NCBI GenBank assembly: GCA_963850305.1 | Contig: CAWKKR010000008.1 | Coordinates: 1,664,001-1,728,000, forward strand | Source: an uncultured delta proteobacterium | Lineage (GTDB): Bacteria; Myxococcota_A; Polyangia; Polyangiales; Polyangiaceae | Direction of reading: 5' to 3' | DNA length: 64,000 nt | Shown: positions 23,149-34,250 of the stretch, piece after piece | Layout: each line of letters starts with the position of its first letter | Numbering within the stretch: position 1 is the stretch's first letter | The notes under the pieces: generated by a model | Seen by the model: only the letters and a program-made list of their open reading frames with translations | Told to the model about the DNA's origin: nothing | The model's database searches: none | Position numbers and translations under genes: made by a program

Positions 23149-23670
23149 CTACCCAATGGACTCGACCCCTCGGATCTGAAGCAAATTGAGCTCTGAAGCA
23201 CCCGCACGTTTTTTCCTACAACCGATTTTTCTAGGGAGCATGGACTCATATCTAGGGCGACCGCTGGCGAGCACCGCTTCCAGTGCGCCAACCATCGCGG
23301 GACCGACCGTCTTCAGCTGATCGCGATGGAGTGTGGATAGCCGGACGAGGAGTGTCATGCCTCGTGCGGTCAGCCGCAGGAGGACTTCGCGCCGGTCCGG
23401 AGACGTGCGGTCGCGCCGCAAGAGTCCCTGTGCCTCGAGCTTGTCCACGAGGGCGACGGTGGTGTGATGCTGCACGCAGAGTCGTTCGGCGACGGCGCCG
23501 ATCGTTGGCCGCTGGTTCGCGGGCAAGCCGCGGAGCGCGAGGAGCAATTGATGTTGCTGAGGTTCGATACCCGCCTCGCGCGCGGCGCGCTCGCTGAACG
23601 CCAGGAACTTGCGGATCTCGTAACGGAAGGTCGCGAGCGCCCGGTAGTCGGAGGTCGAGACTCTCGGCAT
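23149..23670 (-). CDS. MarR-family transcriptional regulator
   Basis: DYRALATFRYEIRKFL, QQHQLLL, AERL...LVDKLEAQGLLRR, DRREVLLRLT; TGATG overlap with the upstream gene. Confidence 0.88.
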   Translation of the reverse strand: MPRVSTSDYRALATFRYEIRKFLAFSERAAREAGIEPQQHQLLLALRGLPANQRPTIGAVAERLCVQHHTTVALVDKLEAQGLLRRDRTSPDRREVLLRLTARGMTLLVRLSTLHRDQLKTVGPAMVGALEAVLASGRPRYESMLPRKIGCRKKRAGASELNLLQIRGVESIG

Positions 23671-25100
23671 CAGCTGGCCGCCTCGAGAGCGACGGGTTTC
23701 TTCAGACTCGCGATGAGCTGGCCGAGCTCGCTCTTGCATGAGCCGCACCCGGTGCCCGCCCGGGTGACCTCGCCGAGCGCGGCGACCGAGTCCGCTCCGC
23801 GGTCGATGGCTTCGCGCAGCACGCTCTCACTGACTCGCTGGCAATTGCACACCACGCGATCGAGTCCGGACGCTCGATCCCGCACCTTGCAGAGCACGGC
23901 CAGCGGATCGTCGGGCAATAGATCCCCGCGATCGAAGATCTGCACGAGCTCCGCCGTCGCGGTGGTGTTGCCGACCAGCATGGCGCCGACGAGCTGCCCG
24001 TCGCGTACGATGAGTTTGCGGTACGCGCTGCGCCGATCTTCGATGATCTGGAACACCTCGTCGCTTTCGAGCTCGGCCTCGAGGCTGCCCATCGAGGCGA
24101 CGTCGACGCCCGCGACCTTCAGGCGCGTGTAGAGCTTGGTTCCGCCGTATCGGGACAGCGGCTTCATCCCGCTGAGCACGTCGGAAAGAACGCTCGCCTG
24201 CTCCCAGACGGGAGTCACGATGCCGTAAGTCCTGCCACGGTGTTCCGCGCATTCGCCGAACGCGTACACGGACGCGACGGGCGTCGCGAGCACGTCGTTC
24301 ACGACGATTCCCTTGTTGACGGGGAGCGCGGAGGCTTTCGCTACGTCGACGCGCGGTCGCACGCCGCACGCGAGCACGATCATGTCCGCCGATAGGGTCG
24401 TGCCATCGTCGAGGACGACGCCCTGGATGCGCTCCTCGCCGTACACGGCTTCGACAGTCCTGCCGATGCGCACGAATACGCCGGCTTTTTCGATCTGGCG
24501 CCGCAGCATCTCGCCGCCGATTCCATCGAGCTGGGTGTTCATGAGTGTCTGGGCGACGTGAACGACCGTGACGTGCAGACCGAGGTCGACGAGCACCTTG
24601 GCCGCTTCCAGTCCGAGCAGCCCCCCGCCGAGCACGACGGCCGCGTCACCCGGGCGTGCATGCGTGCGCATGCGGATGCAGTCGCCGATCGTTCGATAGA
24701 CGAATCCTCCGCGGCGCAGCTCACCGTCTTCGCCGAGCAGGCCTTCCAGCGGCGGGACCAGGGGTTGGCTACCCGTCGCCAGCACGGCGAGGTCATAGCG
24801 GCGAGTGAGTCCGTCTTCCGTCTCGACGTTCTTCCGCAGCGTGTCGAGTCGCTTCACACGCGTCGTCGCGAGGAGACGCATCCCGTGACGGTCGTACCAC
24901 TCCGGTGTCTTCGTCACGATCGAGCTCGGGTCGTCGCCGCCGAGCACCTTGCCGAGCTGGATGCGGTTGTATGCGCCGCCCCGCTCTTCTCCGTACACCG
25001 TGACGTCGTAGAGCTCGTGACCGCCGCGGGCGACGAGCTCGTCCAGGAGCCGGCACGTGCCCATGCCGTTTCCAATGATGGCCAACCGTTTCTTGGACAT
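23670..25100 (-). CDS. NAD(P)H/FAD oxidoreductase with BFD-like [2Fe-2S] domain; NasB-like electron-transfer subunit of assimilatory nitrate reductase
   Basis: IIGNGMG, YNRI, LATGS, GGGLLGLEAA, GECAEH, TRLKVAGVD, C-terminal CNC...TRAGTGCGSC; no siroheme domain. Confidence 0.85.
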   Translation of the reverse strand: MSKKRLAIIGNGMGTCRLLDELVARGGHELYDVTVYGEERGGAYNRIQLGKVLGGDDPSSIVTKTPEWYDRHGMRLLATTRVKRLDTLRKNVETEDGLTRRYDLAVLATGSQPLVPPLEGLLGEDGELRRGGFVYRTIGDCIRMRTHARPGDAAVVLGGGLLGLEAAKVLVDLGLHVTVVHVAQTLMNTQLDGIGGEMLRRQIEKAGVFVRIGRTVEAVYGEERIQGVVLDDGTTLSADMIVLACGVRPRVDVAKASALPVNKGIVVNDVLATPVASVYAFGECAEHRGRTYGIVTPVWEQASVLSDVLSGMKPLSRYGGTKLYTRLKVAGVDVASMGSLEAELESDEVFQIIEDRRSAYRKLIVRDGQLVGAMLVGNTTATAELVQIFDRGDLLPDDPLAVLCKVRDRASGLDRVVCNCQRVSESVLREAIDRGADSVAALGEVTRAGTGCGSCKSELGQLIASLKKPVALEAAS

Positions 25101-25106
25101 CGCCGT

Positions 25107-27236
25107 TCACCCCTGGCTCTCGAGACGAGGATTGAGGGCGCGGGCTCGCACCGCGCAGACTTTGAACTCGGGCATTCGACTCGTAGGGTCGAGCGCCGGG
25201 ATCGTGAGCACGTTCGCCGCTTGCTTTCCGCCCCAGTGAAATGGCGCGAACAGGGTGTCCCGGCGAATGTCGGGGGAGACCGTCGCGGAGAAGCGAACCT
25301 CGCCCCGACGGCTCTGAACCAGCACGGCATCGCCCTCTGCCACTCCGAGGTGTGTCGCGAGTTCGGGATTCATTTCCAGGCGCGGTTCGCCCTTCGCGGC
25401 GACGAGCTCGGGGACGCGACGCGTTTGCGCCCCGGAGTTGTAGTGTTCCTTGTATCGCCCCGTCGTGAAGTAGAGCGGGTACTCGTCGTCGGGCACTTCC
25501 GCGGCCGGGCGGTACCTCACCGGGTGAAAGCGCGCGAGCCCCGACGGATGCGCGAAGCGCTCCTCGAAGAGCCGCGGCGTCCCCGGGTGATCGAGCGCCG
25601 GACAGGGCCAAAAAACCCCATTCTGTTCCTTCAACTTCTCGTAAGTGATGCCGCTGTAGTCGGCGAGCCCGCCCGCGGTCGCGCGCCGGAACTCGTCGAA
25701 GACCTCTCGGGAGGATTCGAACGAAAACCCTCGGGTGCAGCCGAGTCGTGACGCGAGCGCACACAGCACCTCGATATCGGTCCTCACGGAAGGGGGCGGC
25801 GCTTGCACGCGCTGCCTCAGGAGGACGCGCCCCTCGAGGTTCGTCATGGTTCCCTCTTCCTCGGCCCAGGCCGTGGTCGGCAGCACGACGTGCGCGGCGG
25901 CGGAGGTTTCGTTCTCGAAGGCGTCCGCGACGACGAGTAGCTCCAGCGATTCCAGCCGCCGGATGACGTGCGACGCGTTCGGCGACGCCACGGCGACGTT
26001 CGAGCCGAAGACCAGGAGCGCTCGGACGCCACCTTCGGGACCGAGCGCGTCGAGCAACTCGTACGCGCTCTTCCCCTTGCGGGGGAGGTCATCGGGCAGG
26101 ATTGCCCACACTCGCGCGATCTGTTCGCGATGCGCCGAGTCTTCGATCAGACGATACCCGGGGAGCTGATCCGCTTTCTGTCCGTGCTCGCGTCCGCCTT
26201 GACCGTTGCCCTGACCGGTCAGACAGCCATAGCCGCTCGCGGGCTTCCCGACCTTGCCGAGGGCGAGCATCAGGTTGATGAGCGCGAGCACCGTATCCGT
26301 GCCCTTCGACTGCTGTTCTGCGCCGCGACCCGACAGCACCATGCTGGCTTCGGCGGCTGCGAGCATGCGGACGGCCGCGAGCTGATGCTCGATCGGAACG
26401 CCGGTGAGCCGCTCCACGAACGCCGGCTGGCTCGTGAGCACGCCGCGCCGCACGTCGTCGAAGCCCTCCGTCCGCCGCTCGATGTAATCGTGGTCGACGA
26501 GTTTTTCTTCGATTGCCAGATGAAGGAGACCGTTGGCGAGCGCGAGATCAGTCCCCGGCGTCAGCTGCAGGTGAAGCGTTGCGGCCCGCGCGGTGTCTGT
26601 GCGCCGTGGATCGACGACGATGAGGTCGCCGCCGCGGTTCTTCTGCTCGAAGATCCACTGCATGATTGGCGGCATCGTCTCGGCGCAGTTCGAGCCCCAG
26701 AGCATGAGCGCGCCCGTGCTCGCGATGTCTTCGACCGGGAACGGCAACCCGCGGTCGATGCCGAACGCGCGATTCTGCCCCGCCGCCGCGGAGGCCATGC
26801 AGTAGCGACCGTTGTAGTCGATGTTCGGTGACCGGAGCGCGACGCGCACGAACTTGCCGAGCAAGTAAGCCTTTTCGTTCGTCAGGGCGCCGCTACCGAA
26901 TGCGGCCAGGGCTTCGGGACCATGTCGATCGCGGAGCGTTTTCAGTTTCTCCGCGACGAAGTCGAGCGCGGTGTCCCAGTCGACGGGTTCGAGTGTGCCG
27001 CGCTTCGCCCTGAGGAGGGGACCGCGGAGCCTCGCTTCGTGTCCGGCGAGCGCGCCGGCCGTGAAGCCCTTGATGCACATCTGCCCGCGATTGACGGGGA
27101 ATTCGGGATCGGCGCGCACGTCGAGGGGGCGCCCGTCCGCTGGGGTCACCAGCATGCCGCACTGGAACGCGCAATACGGGCAGTGAGTTTTCGTCGTCGT
27201 CGAACGGGGGCTCGCTAGCGACGCGCTTCCAGCCAT
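25107..27236 (-). CDS. Assimilatory nitrate reductase catalytic subunit (Mo-bisPGD, NasC/NasA-like)
   Basis: THCPYCAFQCG...C [4Fe-4S] motif, NGRYCMASA, LTGQGNGQGGREHG, GTMTNLEGR, TTGRY, DPTSRMPEFK. Confidence 0.9.
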   Translation of the reverse strand: MAGSASLASPRSTTTKTHCPYCAFQCGMLVTPADGRPLDVRADPEFPVNRGQMCIKGFTAGALAGHEARLRGPLLRAKRGTLEPVDWDTALDFVAEKLKTLRDRHGPEALAAFGSGALTNEKAYLLGKFVRVALRSPNIDYNGRYCMASAAAGQNRAFGIDRGLPFPVEDIASTGALMLWGSNCAETMPPIMQWIFEQKNRGGDLIVVDPRRTDTARAATLHLQLTPGTDLALANGLLHLAIEEKLVDHDYIERRTEGFDDVRRGVLTSQPAFVERLTGVPIEHQLAAVRMLAAAEASMVLSGRGAEQQSKGTDTVLALINLMLALGKVGKPASGYGCLTGQGNGQGGREHGQKADQLPGYRLIEDSAHREQIARVWAILPDDLPRKGKSAYELLDALGPEGGVRALLVFGSNVAVASPNASHVIRRLESLELLVVADAFENETSAAAHVVLPTTAWAEEEGTMTNLEGRVLLRQRVQAPPPSVRTDIEVLCALASRLGCTRGFSFESSREVFDEFRRATAGGLADYSGITYEKLKEQNGVFWPCPALDHPGTPRLFEERFAHPSGLARFHPVRYRPAAEVPDDEYPLYFTTGRYKEHYNSGAQTRRVPELVAAKGEPRLEMNPELATHLGVAEGDAVLVQSRRGEVRFSATVSPDIRRDTLFAPFHWGGKQAANVLTIPALDPTSRMPEFKVCAVRARALNPRLESQG

Positions 27237-27324: not shown

Positions 27325-27470
27325 ATCCGCGCGTTCGGCGAGCGCGACACGTCGAGACGTCGATGTCCGAACGTGCGCACATCGGTGACGAGGAGACCGA
27401 GATCACTCACGGTCACTTGGTGGAAACATTCACGCAAGCGAAGCGCGCGACAATCTTGTCACTCCCGCCA

Positions 27471-29039
27471 ATGAAGAGAGCCCTCGCTTTCGAGCCTCTG
27501 GAACGTTCCGGCCGCGCGTTGCTTCCGCCGACACCCGCCTCCGAACAGCTGCTCGCGGTTGCCGAGATCGGGCGGGAGCTCGCTCAAGCGGACGATCCGG
27601 AGTTCCGCCTTTCGCGCAGCCTGCGAGCGCTCGAGCGACGACTCGGTGCGACCCGGAGCGTGGTCTACCTCGTCGACCACGAACGACGGTCGCTCGTGGT
27701 CGAAGCCGCGCACGGCATCGAGACACAGCAATTTCGGCCTCGCTACGGGCGCGGTGTCGCGGGGCGGGTTGCCGCGGGTGGACAGCCCGTCATCGTACCG
27801 GTGGTCCGACACGACGCCATGGCGCTCTCCGAATTGTCCGACGTGACGCGCTGGTCCGAGGCAGGCTGGAACCTCGTGGCCGTGCCCGTCGCACCGGGCG
27901 GGCCGCGAACGGCGGTCCTCTGTGCCTATTTCCGCCATCGAGACTCGAGCGGCTTCGCCGGGCGAATCGGCGCGCTGGACGTCGCGGGCGCGCTCATCTG
28001 GAAAGCCGTCCTCGGAAAGGGAGGGCCCGCGCCGCGCGTGACGCCGCCGGTGAAAGAGGGGAGTCCGCGGGCCACGCCGGCAGCGTTCGAGTACGCCAAC
28101 ATGATCGGCGCCAGCCAGCCGATGCTGCAGCTGTACGAGCAGGTCGGCCAGGTGGCGCGCACCAACGCGACCGCGCTGTTACTCGGTGAGTCCGGCACGG
28201 GGAAAGAGCTCGTAGCCCAGGCGATCCACCGCAACTCACCGCGGGCCGCGATGCCGTTCGTGAAGGTCAACTGCGCGGCGCTCCCGGACACGCTCTTCGA
28301 GTCCGAGCTGTTCGGGCACGAAAAGGGAGCGTTCACGGGGGCCCTCACCCGCCGCAAGGGACGCTTCGAGCTTGCTCAGGGCGGCACGCTGTTCCTCGAC
28401 GAGATCGGAGAGCTGACGCTTCAAGCACAAGCCAAGCTGCTTCGGGCGTTGCAGTTCCGCGAGTTCGAGCGCCTCGGTGGGACCGAGACGCTCCGCACCG
28501 ACGTGCGCGTCGTGGCCGCGACGAACCTCGATCTGGAGCAGGCCGTGCGCCAGGGCAGGTTCCGGGAGGATCTCTTCTACCGGATCAACGTATTCACCCT
28601 GGCCTTGCCGCCCCTCCGGGAGAGAAAGGCCGACATCCCGGCGCTCTCGGAGTACTTCGTGGCGCGGCTGGCGGCGGAGCACAGCCGCCGGATCAGTCGA
28701 GTCTCGAGCGCCGCGCTCGACGTTCTCAAGGAGCACTCCTGGCCAGGCAACGTGCGCGAACTCGAGAACGTCATCGAACGGGCCGTGGTCGTCTGCGACG
28801 GGGAGGTGATTCAGGAGCGCCACCTACCGCTCCCGGTGCGGGCAAACGAGCAAGTAGCGGGGGACCGCGTGACGCTCGACGAAGCGGTCGAACGGCTCGA
28901 ACGCCGCCTGGTGGAGGCCGCGCTTCGTGACGAGAAGGGCAGCATAAGCGGCGCCGCGCGGCTGCTGGGGACGACGGAACGGATCCTTCGTTACAAGATC
29001 CGCAAGCTGAGGCTCGATGCCGCGCGCTTTCGCGCGTGA
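27471..29039 (+). CDS. NifA-type sigma54 enhancer-binding protein (GAF-AAA+-HTH)
   Basis: GAF-like N-terminus (GRGVAGRVA), GESGTGKE, ESELFGHEKGAFTGA, LFLDEIGE, FREDLFYR, WPGNVRELEN, C-terminal HTH. Start could be further upstream (27363). Confidence 0.9.
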   Translation: MKRALAFEPLERSGRALLPPTPASEQLLAVAEIGRELAQADDPEFRLSRSLRALERRLGATRSVVYLVDHERRSLVVEAAHGIETQQFRPRYGRGVAGRVAAGGQPVIVPVVRHDAMALSELSDVTRWSEAGWNLVAVPVAPGGPRTAVLCAYFRHRDSSGFAGRIGALDVAGALIWKAVLGKGGPAPRVTPPVKEGSPRATPAAFEYANMIGASQPMLQLYEQVGQVARTNATALLLGESGTGKELVAQAIHRNSPRAAMPFVKVNCAALPDTLFESELFGHEKGAFTGALTRRKGRFELAQGGTLFLDEIGELTLQAQAKLLRALQFREFERLGGTETLRTDVRVVAATNLDLEQAVRQGRFREDLFYRINVFTLALPPLRERKADIPALSEYFVARLAAEHSRRISRVSSAALDVLKEHSWPGNVRELENVIERAVVVCDGEVIQERHLPLPVRANEQVAGDRVTLDEAVERLERRLVEAALRDEKGSISGAARLLGTTERILRYKIRKLRLDAARFRA

Positions 29040-29146: not shown

Positions 29147-29190
29147 CACATTTTTGTCGGACCCCCCGGAAGCCCTCCGACGAAATTGTC
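29147..29190. promoter_or_regulatory. Paired candidate activator binding sites, consensus GAC(A/G)-N4-TGTC
   Basis: CACATTTTTGTC (29147) and GACGAAATTGTC (29179), 32 bp apart and 80-120 bp upstream of a sigma54 site; further copies at 27356 and 27449. Confidence 0.6.
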
Positions 29191-29267: not shown

Positions 29268-29283
29268 AGGCACGCTCGTTGCA
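29268..29283 (+). promoter_or_regulatory. sigma54 -24/-12 promoter of the hemD-like/nirBD/moeA/mobA operon
   Basis: AGGCACGCTCGTTGCA matches GGCACG-N4-TTGCA; directly downstream of a GAFTGA activator gene. Confidence 0.85.
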
Positions 29284-29331: not shown

Positions 29332-31128
29332 ATGGAGAGTGATGTCTTGATTGAAACAAATCGTCCGGTCGTCGCGCTTCTCGAGGCGCGGATGAAGAGC
29401 GAACTCTCGCGGCTCGTGGAGAAGCATGGCGGTACGCCGCTCTGCGTGCCTGCGGTGGGGGAGAAGCCGGTGCTCACCCTCGAAGCGATCGCGCGCTTCA
29501 TGGACGATCTCGAGGAAGGCGGACGCGACGTGGTCATCTTCATGACCGGCGTCGCCGTGTCGTTGCTCTTCGAAGCCGCGGACCAGCTCGGCCGTCGTGC
29601 AGAGCTGGTGACGGCGCTGAAGCGCGCCACGACGATCTGCAGGGGACCGAAACCCACGGCCGCGCTCCGCGGCTTCGGTGTGCCCCCGACGATCAGCGCT
29701 CGCGAACCGTTCACGGCGGCCGAGCTCATCGACGCGTTCGCGGATCTCGAGGTCGTCGGACGTCGCGTCGTGCTCTTCAACTATGGCGAGCGGAGCGAGA
29801 CGCTCTCCGAGACGCTCCTCGCGCGCCAGGCGGATCTTCGCGAGATCTGGCTTTACAAGTGGACGGTGCCGGCGGACTCGGCGCCACTCGAGGCACTGGT
29901 GCGCTCGATAATCGCGGGCGAGGTCACCGCTCTCGCCGTCACCTGTCAGATCCAGTTTCGGAACCTGTACCAGGTGGCCGAGCGCATCGACCTCGGACGC
30001 GAGCTGGTGCGCGCTCTGAACGACCGTGTCGTCGTCGGAGCGGTGGGTCCGACGTGCCGCGCGATCCTCGAGGCCTACGGCGTGGAGCCGAAAGTGACTC
30101 CGGAATATCCGAAGATGGGCCCGCTCGTGACGGCGCTCATGCGGTATCTGGATCTCAAGGCGCAACACGCGGGCGCCCGCCGCGACCGGATCGGCGTGAA
30201 GGGGGTGCTTCTGTGCTCGGTCCTGGCTCTGTCCACGTCCGTCACGCCGGCGATGGCGGACGAAGCCGCCGCGCCCGTGCCGGCACCAGCACCGGCTCCG
30301 TACTCGCTACCGTTCCAGCTCCGCCCCGCGCTGCCCGGGAACGCAGTCCGGCTCGATACGTCCCTGGCGTTCTACGAGGACCCGAAGACGCACGATGCCG
30401 GGACGACCACCACCCCGTTCCTGCTTTTCTCGTACAAGGTGACCGACTCGTTCGCTCCTCTGATCCGGATCGGCGCGGTGCAAAACTCGCCTCCGGCGGG
30501 CGATGGCAGCAGCGCGTTCGGTCTCTTGAATCCTGCGGTCGGTGGCACGTACGGGTTCAAGCCGATACCGAGCTTGCGCATCGGTCTTTTTCTCGGAGTC
30601 ACCATCCCGGTGGGGTTGGGAGGTGGCGATCATCCCAATGCCGCCTCGGCTCTCGCGCGCAGCGTCGGCCTCTACGCTCGCTCGGCGATGGATAACGCCA
30701 TGTTTGCGGTCAACGATCTCACGATCTTCCCCGGGGTCGACGTTGCCTATGTCGCCGGCGGCTTCACGGCACAGGCCGAAGCAACGTTGCTCCAGCTCAC
30801 GCGGGTGCGCGGCGCGGACAGCCAGCCCGATGCACACCGGACGAACTTCACCGCCGGGGTTCACGTCGGATATTTCATCATCCCGATGCTGTCGCTCGGA
30901 GCGGAGCTCCGGCACCAGCGCTGGCTCTCCACGCCGAAGGCGGTAGCCGCGGACAAGACGGGCACGCTGCGCGACAACACGACGGTCGCCTTCGGTCCGC
31001 GGATGCACTTCGAGGTCGCACCGGGAAAGTGGCTGCACCCTGGCATCTCGCTGACGCTCCCGCTCGACGATCCGATGAAGAAGAACAGCTACAAGATCGT
31101 CCAGCTCGACATTCCGTTTTCGTTCTGA
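29332..31128 (+). CDS. Uroporphyrinogen-III synthase (HemD)-like domain fused in frame to a putative outer-membrane beta-barrel
   Basis: About aa 1-280: LLEARM..EL..LVEKHGG.P, IFMTGV, CRGPKP..AL, YKW, AVGPTC...L...GV, P.MG. Then a signal-peptide-like stretch, a Pro/Ala linker and beta-strands ending in aromatic LDIPFSF. Confidence 0.75.
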   Translation: MESDVLIETNRPVVALLEARMKSELSRLVEKHGGTPLCVPAVGEKPVLTLEAIARFMDDLEEGGRDVVIFMTGVAVSLLFEAADQLGRRAELVTALKRATTICRGPKPTAALRGFGVPPTISAREPFTAAELIDAFADLEVVGRRVVLFNYGERSETLSETLLARQADLREIWLYKWTVPADSAPLEALVRSIIAGEVTALAVTCQIQFRNLYQVAERIDLGRELVRALNDRVVVGAVGPTCRAILEAYGVEPKVTPEYPKMGPLVTALMRYLDLKAQHAGARRDRIGVKGVLLCSVLALSTSVTPAMADEAAAPVPAPAPAPYSLPFQLRPALPGNAVRLDTSLAFYEDPKTHDAGTTTTPFLLFSYKVTDSFAPLIRIGAVQNSPPAGDGSSAFGLLNPAVGGTYGFKPIPSLRIGLFLGVTIPVGLGGGDHPNAASALARSVGLYARSAMDNAMFAVNDLTIFPGVDVAYVAGGFTAQAEATLLQLTRVRGADSQPDAHRTNFTAGVHVGYFIIPMLSLGAELRHQRWLSTPKAVAADKTGTLRDNTTVAFGPRMHFEVAPGKWLHPGISLTLPLDDPMKKNSYKIVQLDIPFSF

Positions 31129-31233
31129 GCCCGCCTTTCGAGTCTGCCAGAGCCCTCGAGGACCTCATGAGCCAGCACGGTGAACATTGGATTGATGAGC
31201 TCGCGACGGGCGTCCCGAGCGCTGGAGGCTGAA

Positions 31234-33849
31234 ATGGAAACGGAAGTGTTGCCGGTCCAGGGCTCCGGCGAGCATGCAGGGCCCCTCGGCTCGAGGCCAT
31301 CGCTCGTCGTCGTCGGTCACGGGATGGTCGGGCATCGCCTCGTCGAAGCACTCGCCGAGCGCGGTCTGACCGGCACCTTCGACGTCACGGTGCTCGCGGA
31401 AGAGCCGCGCCGCGCGTACGATCGGGTGAACCTATCCGCCTGGTTCGACGGACGTCACGAGGACGAGCTGACGCTCGCCTCCGCGACGCAATACGCCGAA
31501 TGGGGCGTCGAGGTACTACTCGGCGAATCCGCGTCGGAGCTCGATCGCGCTCGCCGCACGCTCCGGACGAATCGCGGCCGTGAGCTTCACTATGACAAGC
31601 TCGTGCTCGCGACGGGGTCGTATCCCTTCGTGCCGTCGATCGCCGGCAAGGATCTCCGCGGGTGCTTCGTTTACCGCACTCTCGACGATCTCGCGGCGAT
31701 TCGAGACGCCTCTGCAACCGCGAAGAGCGGCGTCGTCATCGGCGGCGGATTGCTCGGCCTGGAGGCGGCCAAGGCGCTTCATTCTCTCGGACTCCTAACG
31801 CACGTCATCGAGTTCGCACCTCGGTTGATGCCGCTTCAGGTGGACGACGTGGGCGCCGCGGTGCTCCGGAGCCGCATCGAGGCGCTCGGCATCGTCGTTC
31901 ACACGAGCGCGAAGACCCAATCGATCCTGGCGGACGACGAGGGGCGAGTCTCCGCCGTTCGGTTCGAGGACGAGGGCGAGCTCCCGGCGGACATCGTCGT
32001 ATTCTCGGCGGGGATCCGTGCGCGCGACGAGCTCGCGCGCCATTCCGGACTCGCGCTCGGCGACCGCGGCGGCATCGCGATCGACGAGAGTTGCCGGACC
32101 ACGGACCCCGACGTGTTCGCCATCGGTGAATGCGCGGCGCTCGCCAACCGGACGTATGGTCTGGTGGCCCCCGGATACCGCATGGCCGAGGTCGTCGCGG
32201 CCCAGCTCGCCAGCGACGCCGGGGCGTTCACCGGGTTCGACATGAGCACGAAGCTCAAGCTCCTCGGCGTGGACGTCGCGAGCTTCGGAGACGCGTTCGG
32301 CGTGACCGCGGGCTCGAAAGTCGTCAGTCTCTTCGACGGCGCCACCGGCATCTACAAGAAGCTCGTCCTCAGCGACGACCGGAAGAAGGTCCTCGGCGGC
32401 ATTCTGGTGGGCGATGCGTCCTCCTACGCCGAGCTCTCCAGTCATGCCAAGAGCGGGACCGAGATCACCCAACGCCCCGAGCATCTGCTCGTTCCGCCGC
32501 CCGATGGCCCCGTCAAGACGCGCGGCGTCCTGGCGCTGTCGGATTCGGCGATCATCTGCTCGTGTCACAACATCGAAAAGCGCGCCATCTGCGGCGCGAT
32601 CCGCGAAAGGAATCTCACCGACGTCGGCGCCATCAAGGCTTGCACGAAGGCAGGTTCGGGCTGCGGTTCGTGCGTGACGCTGGTCAGCGAGCTCCTGAAG
32701 CACGAGCTCACCCGTGCCGGCGTGGCGGTGAAGAACCATCTCTGCGAGCACTTCGAATACTCCCGCGCCGAGCTCCATCATCTCGTGCGCGTCGAGAAGA
32801 TTCACTCGTTCGACGAGCTCGTCCGCAGGCGCGGGAAGGGAGCAGGGTGCGAGATCTGCAAGCCTGCCGTCGCCTCCATCCTCGCATCGACGTGGAACGA
32901 GCACGTGCTCGAAAAGGACCGCGTCGGCCTCCAGGACACGAACGATCGCTTTCTCGCGAACATTCAGCGCGACGGCACCTACTCGGTCGTTCCGAGGTTG
33001 GCGGGAGGAGAAGTGACGCCGGATCAGCTCATCGCAATCGGGCGCGTCGCGAAGAAGTACGGCCTTTACACCAAGATCACCGGCGGCCAGCGCGTCGACC
33101 TCTTCGGCGCGCGGCTCGAGCAGCTACCGCTCATCTGGGCTGAGCTCGGCGCCGCGGGGCTCGAGTCCGGGCACGCATACGGCAAGGCGCTCCGGACGGT
33201 GAAGTCCTGCGTCGGAAGCACCTGGTGCCGCTTTGGCGTGCAGGACTCGGTCGGGTTCGCGGTTCGGATCGAGAATCGATACAAGGGGCTCAGGAGTCCG
33301 CACAAGCTGAAGGGCGCGGTGTCGGGCTGCGCCCGAGAGTGCGCCGAAGCACAGGGCAAGGACTTCGGCATCATCGCGACGGACAAGGGCTACAACCTCT
33401 ACGTGTGCGGCAACGGCGGAATGAAGCCGCAGCACGCCGTGCTGCTCGCTGCGGATCTGGACGAGGAAACGACGCTCCGTTATCTGGACCGGTTCCTGAT
33501 GTTCTACGTTCGCACGGCGGACAGGCTCCAGCGCACCGCCTCGTGGTTCAACAGCCTCGAAGGGGGGATCGAGTATCTGAAGCACGTCGTCATAGAGGAT
33601 TCCCTCGGCATTGCCGTCGAGCTGGAGGCGGACATGCAGCACATCGTCGACACGTACGAGTGCGAGTGGAAGGCAACGCTCTCCGACCCCGACAAGCGTA
33701 AGTTCTTCCGTGCATTCGTGAACTCGGACGCCCCCGATCCCAGCGTCGTCATGGTAAAAGAACGCGCTCAACATCGGCCGGCCCAATGGAAAGAAAAAGA
33801 GGCGTTCGCGAGCCCGACTCGGTTCCGGTTGCCGGTTCTCCCGGCGTGA
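31234..33849 (+). CDS. nirB: NADH-dependent nitrite reductase large subunit
   Basis: VVGHGMVG, GGGLLGLEAA, CSCHN...AGSGCGSC, CEHF, GCEICKP, KITGGQR, siroheme ligands CVGSTWC and GCARECA; GGAGG RBS. Confidence 0.95.
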   Translation: METEVLPVQGSGEHAGPLGSRPSLVVVGHGMVGHRLVEALAERGLTGTFDVTVLAEEPRRAYDRVNLSAWFDGRHEDELTLASATQYAEWGVEVLLGESASELDRARRTLRTNRGRELHYDKLVLATGSYPFVPSIAGKDLRGCFVYRTLDDLAAIRDASATAKSGVVIGGGLLGLEAAKALHSLGLLTHVIEFAPRLMPLQVDDVGAAVLRSRIEALGIVVHTSAKTQSILADDEGRVSAVRFEDEGELPADIVVFSAGIRARDELARHSGLALGDRGGIAIDESCRTTDPDVFAIGECAALANRTYGLVAPGYRMAEVVAAQLASDAGAFTGFDMSTKLKLLGVDVASFGDAFGVTAGSKVVSLFDGATGIYKKLVLSDDRKKVLGGILVGDASSYAELSSHAKSGTEITQRPEHLLVPPPDGPVKTRGVLALSDSAIICSCHNIEKRAICGAIRERNLTDVGAIKACTKAGSGCGSCVTLVSELLKHELTRAGVAVKNHLCEHFEYSRAELHHLVRVEKIHSFDELVRRRGKGAGCEICKPAVASILASTWNEHVLEKDRVGLQDTNDRFLANIQRDGTYSVVPRLAGGEVTPDQLIAIGRVAKKYGLYTKITGGQRVDLFGARLEQLPLIWAELGAAGLESGHAYGKALRTVKSCVGSTWCRFGVQDSVGFAVRIENRYKGLRSPHKLKGAVSGCARECAEAQGKDFGIIATDKGYNLYVCGNGGMKPQHAVLLAADLDEETTLRYLDRFLMFYVRTADRLQRTASWFNSLEGGIEYLKHVVIEDSLGIAVELEADMQHIVDTYECEWKATLSDPDKRKFFRAFVNSDAPDPSVVMVKERAQHRPAQWKEKEAFASPTRFRLPVLPA

Positions 33850-34250
33850 CCGACATGGATCCGGAGGCACGCGCGTCGGCTGAAGAGCGGAGTCGGACTC
33901 CCGTCGACAACCTGGCGTGGGTCGACGTCTGCGCGCTCGAGGACATCGTTCCGGGGACGGGCGTGGCCGCGCTGATTTACGGCGTGCAAGTGGCCGTCAT
34001 CCGCCCACGAGAAGGGGAACGCGTTTACGCGCTTTCCAACTTCGACCCGTTCAGTCGTGCGTTCGTGATCGCGAGGGGCATCGTCGGGGATCGCGGGGGC
34101 GTGGCCAAGATTGCGTCGCCGATCTACAAGCAGAATTTCGAGCTCGAGACCGGGCAATGTCTCGACGACCCTTCCGTGCGGCTGGACGTCTACGCTACGC
34201 AGGTCGTCGGTGGCCGAGTGCAGGTGGGGGTCGGCGTTTGGATGGAATGA
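33846..34250 (+). CDS. nirD: Nitrite reductase small subunit
   Basis: WVDVC.LEDI.PGTGVAAL, YALSNFDPFS.A.VIARGIVGD, ASPIYKQNF.L.TGQC; GTGA overlap with nirB. Confidence 0.93.
   Translation: MTDMDPEARASAEERSRTPVDNLAWVDVCALEDIVPGTGVAALIYGVQVAVIRPREGERVYALSNFDPFSRAFVIARGIVGDRGGVAKIASPIYKQNFELETGQCLDDPSVRLDVYATQVVGGRVQVGVGVWME

Follow-up and report, generated by a model that had tools for sequence, protein, structure and literature searches.

The systems that come closest to the locus described here are the actinobacterial regulator NnaR, in which a HemD domain, reported to be inactive in Streptomyces, is joined to a domain that binds DNA (excerpts of PMC11162112 and PMC6277429), and the COG4313 channel Pput2725, which has a hydrophobe-binding lumen and has been proposed to take up hydrophobic molecules (excerpt of PMC4493636). 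The signal sensed by the HemD domain of NnaR is listed as open in the excerpt of PMC11162112. Errors inside GATC motifs have been described for nanopore assemblies, in which most methylated motifs caused no errors (excerpt of PMC12392509).

In the present work, a frame that combines a HemD-like part with a predicted outer-membrane barrel was analysed within a stretch of 64,000 nucleotides from the genome of a soil myxobacterium of the Polyangiaceae (the window), to which all positions given without a contig refer. The fusion is probably not biological; it is likely to consist of two adjacent genes that overlap by four bases and that a single surplus base of the assembly has run together. The genes as such are real and have received little study.

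The HemD-barrel frame and its junction

The region 29332-31128 (+ strand) is present in the assembly as one frame of 598 codons without a stop, as read from the translation of the assembled sequence. The 598-residue translation thus agrees with the preliminary description, according to which no stop separates a HemD-like part from an internal signal-like stretch. Residues 23-266 match Pfam HEM4 with 117.7 bits (cut-off 27.5; model positions 1-230 of 231), which confirms the HemD-like nature of the first half. The product of GTG 30196 begins VKGVLLCSVLALSTSVTPAMA|DEAAAPVPAPAP and proceeds from Met-Lys through a hydrophobic stretch, Ala-Met-Ala and an Ala/Pro linker to a domain ending in Phe. 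The signal-like stretch at this codon has the highest 19-residue hydropathy (1.7) and the joint-highest 11-residue hydropathy (2.35) of the whole frame. By inspection and hydropathy, it corresponds to a predicted Sec signal peptide of 21 residues (30196-30258, +), followed by the short linker (30259-30300, +), which has low pLDDT in the model and is longer and variable in relatives, and by a conserved N-terminal segment (YSLPFQLRP) and a 12-strand outer-membrane beta-barrel of COG4313/FapF-like fold with a terminal Phe (30301-31128, +). The C-terminal half had been described as a signal-bearing barrel ending in Phe, and this description held for the 12 strands in the AlphaFold model and, by inspection and hydropathy, for the signal.

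In the +1 frame, a TGA (30197-30199) shares bases with GTG 30196; the resulting GTGA at 30196-30199 is absent from the preliminary description. This TGA is likely to be the true stop of the HemD-like gene (29347-30199, +; start and stop both predicted), whose likely start is TTG 29347 behind a GGAG at 29334-29337, the listed ORF beginning at ATG 29332. It would end the protein 15 residues past L273, and the HemD-like proteins of 43 of 49 relatives end 16-19 residues past this position (range 13-33). Because a GTG followed by a Lys codon creates a TGA automatically, only the position of the TGA is informative. An NTGA overlap is possible in 20 of the 80 neighbouring pairs tested in the source genome. 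The extra base would lie within the last 15 HemD-like codons (30151-30195, +), a segment with GATC at 30151-30154 and 30189-30192, and would best be placed at or just after the second of these. A codon model was near-neutral, with a slight preference for no shift (4.16, versus 4.04 for a shift at 30193), and disfavoured a shift at the first GATC (30151-30157; -2.5 to 0.2). Since 30193 scores well and 30151-30157 does not, the likeliest site of a shift is near the second GATC. A priori, a +1 error would fall in this particular 45-base stretch with a chance of only about 0.5%, as estimated from the measured error rate, which counts against an assembly error. No read or contig with an identical piece over 30116-30356 was found in three public DNA runs of one study; the same runs contained identical short pieces elsewhere in the region, at a depth of 2-5.

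Searches for a second fusion were performed with the whole protein, its barrel half and a barrel HMM. The best 120 of 253 matches to the whole protein (328-1047 residues) cover at most 54% of it, the window's own protein excepted. With the barrel half, only the window's own protein was found among 8000 scored candidates of the 544-2000-residue class, a blank that is weak evidence. The HMM scan gave 560 cluster representatives, the best 150 of which span 180-515 residues, and five long representatives, inspected by eye, begin like exported proteins with a signal and contain nothing that resembles HemD. When the loci of relatives were pooled (HemD matches of at least 45% identity reaching residue 270), the HemD-like gene and the barrel gene were separate in all 27 distinct adjacent pairs. 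The barrel ATG lies 12-123 bases past the HemD-like stop in 26 of these, and only one pair has a stop/start overlap (L293, ATGA). A distant pair excluded by the identity filter (L148, 32%) likewise consists of separate genes. Of the six genomes of the same genus, half carry the two genes side by side but unfused, and in the other half they lie on different contigs; a DNA search of these six gave no alignment across the junction, and the nearest relatives share only about 71-74% protein identity. Stand-alone barrel homologues carry their own signal peptides. None of 80 syntenic neighbouring pairs in the source genome contained another fusion, nor did any of 42 pairs in a further comparison, a result that speaks against the error reading.

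These comparisons bear on the first proposal of the preliminary description, a polyprotein split by signal peptidase. Such an evolved polyprotein would be cut at a signal-anchor after AMA, leaving the HemD part tethered to the inner membrane and sending the barrel to the outer membrane. It would be in keeping with the open frame, with two halves that look intact, with a cleavage-like site (AMA|DE) and with the co-transcription of the two neighbouring genes in relatives. We nevertheless consider it very unlikely, given that neither the protein searches nor the 27 adjacent pairs provided a second example and that the hydrophobic run measures only about 12 residues (19-residue hydropathy as given above). 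At this length it resembles a cleavable signal rather than an anchor. Moreover, the HemD-like gene accompanies a sigma-54 activator gene more than it does the barrel gene, from which it is separated in the three same-genus genomes with different contigs.

The second proposal, two in-frame starts, reduces to an ordinary two-gene layout. In its stricter form, the sequence is real and GTG 30196 is an internal start yielding a normal barrel in addition to a long read-through product. The GTG would indeed give a complete, compact signal peptide, and equally short signals occur in two homologues (P0129, P0133), but no GGAG or AGGA lies upstream of 30196 and the arrangement is unique to the source assembly. 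Without an overlapping stop, there would be no translational coupling at this codon. The probability left to this form is very small, and a functional fusion of any kind is very unlikely.

Error load of the assembly

A one-base assembly error accords with the error load found in the source genome (6.26 Mb, 11 contigs, 94.8% complete). Frameshifts were surveyed by comparison with two genomes of the same genus, from which 80 pieces of 20 kb each were taken; these contained 320 ORFs with an orthologue in the source genome. In 386,944 coding bases, 27 distinct frameshifts were detected, or about one per 14 kb, 20 of them +1; as antisense shadow ORFs were included in small number among the queries and the break positions are approximate, the split into +1 and -1 is rough. 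Within the first 40 stretches, 21 of 231 ORFs of the relatives were broken against the source genome, and in the reverse control 2 of 155 source-genome ORFs were broken against the relatives, one of them inside a gene already broken in the source. The genome's only rpoA is interrupted by one extra base near the C-terminal end (G000:C8:683288, L332), and a living cell is unlikely to carry a split single rpoA. Frameshifts were also present in orthologues of recD2, transhydrogenase, pmbA and thiolase.

GATC was found in the 22-base context of 13 of the 27 breaks, compared with 14.3% of random positions (p 3e-5), an enrichment that hints at methylation of a GATC/CGATCG motif. The segment 30854-32495 and its nearly identical copy (see below) differ in three places, two of which are C/T changes inside CGATCG. 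The small number of contigs for 6.26 Mb and the error pattern suggest that the assembly was built from long reads, and the one-base frameshifts that hit essential genes, with their enrichment near GATC, resemble the known indel and methylation-motif errors of such reads. Application of the +1 rate to 223 overlapping pairs (among 3688 filtered ORFs) gave a rough expectation of about 3.3 false fusions genome-wide. With about one gene in twelve broken (27 breaks in 320 orthologues), odd fusions and pseudogenes of this genome are suspect, and a scan for odd fusions would single out such false joins.

The third proposal of the preliminary description, a recently lost stop codon, was nearest to the mark; the cause regarded as likeliest, however, is an assembly error of one base at the GTGA stop/start overlap and not a biological loss. 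A join that is real, recent and unselected, brought about in the source strain by a natural +1 mutation or an in-frame deletion of ~60-120 bases, is regarded as unlikely. In such a deletion, the spacer would have been lost along with the HemD stop and the barrel ATG. After either event, the barrel would be made poorly or only from GTG 30196. A deletion is conceivable because HemD L273 and the barrel core are 151 bases apart, compared with 211-453 in relatives and thus at least 60 bases closer than in any of them, and because narK is also missing from the cluster. A real join is likewise compatible with the codon model, which tolerates the absence of a shift, and with the residues before the h-region, which by eye resemble the signal n-region of one relative (L253). 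Against it, the relatives' own frameshift rate is low and that of the source assembly is high, with rpoA itself broken; after a deletion, moreover, the MK-type start and the +1 TGA at the usual HemD end would have to remain by chance. The barrel also retains all 37 invariant residues of an alignment of 124 sequences. On a rough weighing, one extra base in the assembly is the likely reading.

A separate observation concerns the 1642 bp from the 3' end of the barrel gene to mid-nirB (30854-32495), which are copied at 99.8% on contig C9 (G000:C9:95343-96984; L004, L330); the copy stops short of the HemD-barrel junction. It is flanked by direct copies of a GC-rich repeat of roughly 100 bp, and the adjoining segment, C9:94926-95240, duplicates C8:1185989-1186303 with 100% identity. 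C5:5666-6676, which is 97% identical to a segment of contig C3, also adjoins this repeat. The repeat has 25 matches genome-wide, often among IS elements; it gave no match in Rfam and a z-score of 0.37 when folded as DNA. The arrangement looks like a cassette-like system capturing chromosome fragments between att-like repeats; a misassembly is a possible alternative.

Gene order and the sigma-54 operon

The frame directly precedes nirB (31234-33849, +; TIGR02374, 1039 bits, cut-off 578; GGAG at 31224-31227) and nirD (33786-34250, +; TIGR02378, 99 bits, cut-off 75), encoding the large and small subunits of nitrite reductase, and its placement at the head of the nitrite reductase operon was thereby verified. 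The assimilatory context proposed earlier was likewise borne out by nirBD downstream and by nitrate-reductase-like genes on the other strand. These encode a NasA-like molybdopterin oxidoreductase, likely the assimilatory nitrate reductase (25107-27236, -; Pfam Molybdop_Fe4S4, Molybdopterin, Molydop_binding), and a NirB-like FAD oxidoreductase with one BFD domain, its likely partner (23670-25100, -; Pfam Pyr_redox_2, Rubredoxin_C, Fer2_BFD). Upstream of the HemD-like gene lies a gene for a sigma-54 activator of GAF-AAA+-HTH organization (27363-29039, +), which has a NifA-like architecture, scores below the NifA cut-off and is a conserved neighbour of the HemD-like gene. Between the two genes, a promoter-like sigma-54 (-24/-12) site, AGGCAC-N5-TTGCA, is located at 29268-29283 (+), in the same place as TGGCAC-N5-TTGC in relatives, most of which have such a site; no sigma-70 site was found in a sigma-70 scan. 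Two GAC-N6-GTC palindromes 32 bp apart (29147-29190, +), one perfect (29179-29190) and one with a single mismatch (29147-29158), recur in relatives and are predicted to be activator-binding sites. Most relatives carry the motif upstream of the HemD-like gene, in many cases as a pair with a spacing of 30-32 bp, and it is likely to be a binding motif of this GAF activator family. The paired palindromes, with a spacing of about 31 bp, lie about 90 bp upstream of the sigma-54 promoter, an arrangement conserved across Polyangiaceae.

Polyangiaceae are the source of the closest named homologues. Three genomes of the same genus have activator, HemD-like gene, barrel, narK, nirB and nirD in this order; elsewhere, the barrel is followed by an NMT1_2-type ABC binding protein and permease. 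The conserved sigma-54 nitrate-assimilation operon of Polyangiaceae (activator, HemD-like gene, barrel, nitrate transporter, nirBD) is real. No description of it was found in a search of the open-access literature. The narK gene that lies between barrel and nirB in the same-genus genomes is missing at 31128-31234 of the window, and neither a NarK orthologue nor an NMT1_2 protein was found in the 94.8% complete source genome. This genome does contain a weaker NarK-family match (C7:174421, below the cut-off) and a formate/nitrite channel (C11:268389). At three loci of relatives (L082, L087, L088), the barrel's neighbours are a distant molybdopterin oxidoreductase and apparent respiratory-type membrane and iron-sulfur subunits, not assimilatory genes.

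Read as two genes, the locus would work as follows. The upstream GAF activator would drive the sigma-54 promoter, and transcription would run from there through the HemD-like and barrel genes into nirBD. The HemD-like protein of roughly 283 residues would stay in the cytoplasm, and ribosomes would re-initiate at GTG 30196. The resulting barrel precursor of 310 residues would be exported by the Sec pathway and inserted into the outer membrane, where it would most likely serve as a small-anion (nitrate/nitrite) channel.

The barrel, the HemD-like protein and their known counterparts

The AlphaFold model of the barrel, built from 124 homologues, has 12 strands (pLDDT 93.8, pTM 0.86). Its best structural matches are 4RL8 (Pput2725; Z 22.1, rmsd 3.0, 244 residues aligned) and 5O65 (FapF; Z 21.9, rmsd 2.7, 243 aligned); KdgM and NanC score about 4 Z units lower, and Foldseek gave E-values of 2e-8 and 7e-8 to the same two structures. 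Sequence-based assignment gave less: PF13557 scores 16.2 bits, below its 22-bit cut-off, although some homologues carry a precomputed PF13557 label; the family profile has no sequence match in the PDB; and in the ESM Atlas only unnamed, mostly Myxococcota clusters match, one of them with PF13557 in 21% of its members. A C-terminal Phe is present in 115 of the 124 aligned barrel sequences. Residues 41-49, which include the near-invariant R43 of the N-terminal segment, are near-invariant in the alignment columns and align structurally with the start of 4RL8. Near-invariant residues predicted from strand alternation to face the lumen are R91, Q193, E195, T197, N217, H223, E237, R239, Q241, R269, H271 and D305. 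One homologue (P0279) has about 170 extra residues after the signal peptide, a region that by eye resembles what we take to be a FecR-type domain.

Some nitrate-pathway gene lies near the barrel in 44 of 80 loci, and in 38 of the 80 a gene for NarK or an NrtA/NMT1_2-type ABC transporter is found within 5 kb, often after the barrel. At the other 36 loci, including those of five complete Sorangium genomes, nitrate genes are absent from the 5 kb around the barrel. Small anions other than nitrate are bound by NMT1_2 proteins as well. On account of these 36 loci and of the breadth of NMT1_2 proteins, nitrate specificity is inferential; from the polar and basic character of the predicted lumen, a function as small-anion channel is proposed tentatively.

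For the HemD-like half, the best sequence match in the PDB is 3D8N (E 1e-14, residues 15-273). The protein is below every NCBIfam equivalog cut-off (165.8/233, 125.4/273 and 60.4/246 bits); PRK07239, a model of 381 residues, matches over its N-terminal part with 125 bits (cut-off 273). Two other HEM4 loci occur in the source genome, one of them much stronger (210.6 bits). Mean column identity among 47 sequences is 75%, and an invariant Tyr (Y170, alignment A2) aligns with a Tyr of 3D8N, presumably the catalytic one. In 37 of 49 distinct loci, the activator gene and the HemD-like gene are no more than 1.5 kb apart, in either order; nine of the remaining 12 have flanks too short to tell and three have no activator. 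Two rows in the locus counts stem from one genome flagged as unpublished (G470), and no conclusion rests on them. In at least one relative (L058:302-2325), two tandem HemD-like paralogues directly follow a sigma-54 activator.

When compared with uroporphyrinogen-III synthase HemD (3D8N, 1WCW), the HemD-like protein has the same HEM4 fold, above the cut-off, but it misses the equivalog cut-offs, and a stronger HEM4 locus exists elsewhere in the genome. It may be predicted to provide an extra supply of uroporphyrinogen for siroheme. By analogy to NnaR, it may instead be regulatory and act together with the activator, a role made plausible by the NnaR precedent, with its HemD domain reported to be inactive in Streptomyces, and by the conserved activator neighbour. 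NnaR had already been brought in as a parallel in the preliminary description; the analogy is a good lead for a stand-alone HemD-like protein with a sigma-54 activator, but not for a fusion. In both cases, a HemD-fold protein is associated with nitrate/nitrite assimilation genes and other HemD-domain genes are present in the genome. NnaR, however, has an OmpR-type DNA-binding domain, whereas the HemD-like protein has none (HEM4 being its only domain above a Pfam cut-off), and its relatives stop 13-33 residues after the HemD domain. In place of the NnaR motif (excerpt of PMC6277429), the present locus has a separate GAF-AAA+ sigma-54 activator with GAC-N6-GTC sites.

The barrel, for its part, resembles the COG4313/SphA channel Pput2725 and FapF in its 12 strands and in the conserved N-terminal segment before strand 1, but differs from the members of these groups in that sequence identity is only 11-13% and PF13557 stays below the cut-off. 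The lumen of Pput2725 is hydrophobe-binding according to the excerpt of PMC4493636, whereas that predicted for the barrel is more polar and basic (Arg/His-rich). The barrel is thus a candidate nitrate channel in a fold so far tied to hydrophobic uptake and amyloid export. Taken together, the locus could represent an undescribed myxobacterial module, a speculative reading that we hold with considerable doubt, in which a split sigma-54 counterpart of NnaR (a HemD-fold sensor of a tetrapyrrole or nitrogen-oxide signal, controlling the GAF activator) would be combined with a basic-lumen, COG4313-fold nitrate/nitrite channel feeding NarK or NrtABC. As a protein that stands alone, the HemD-like component could reveal the signal that NnaR perceives through its HemD domain.
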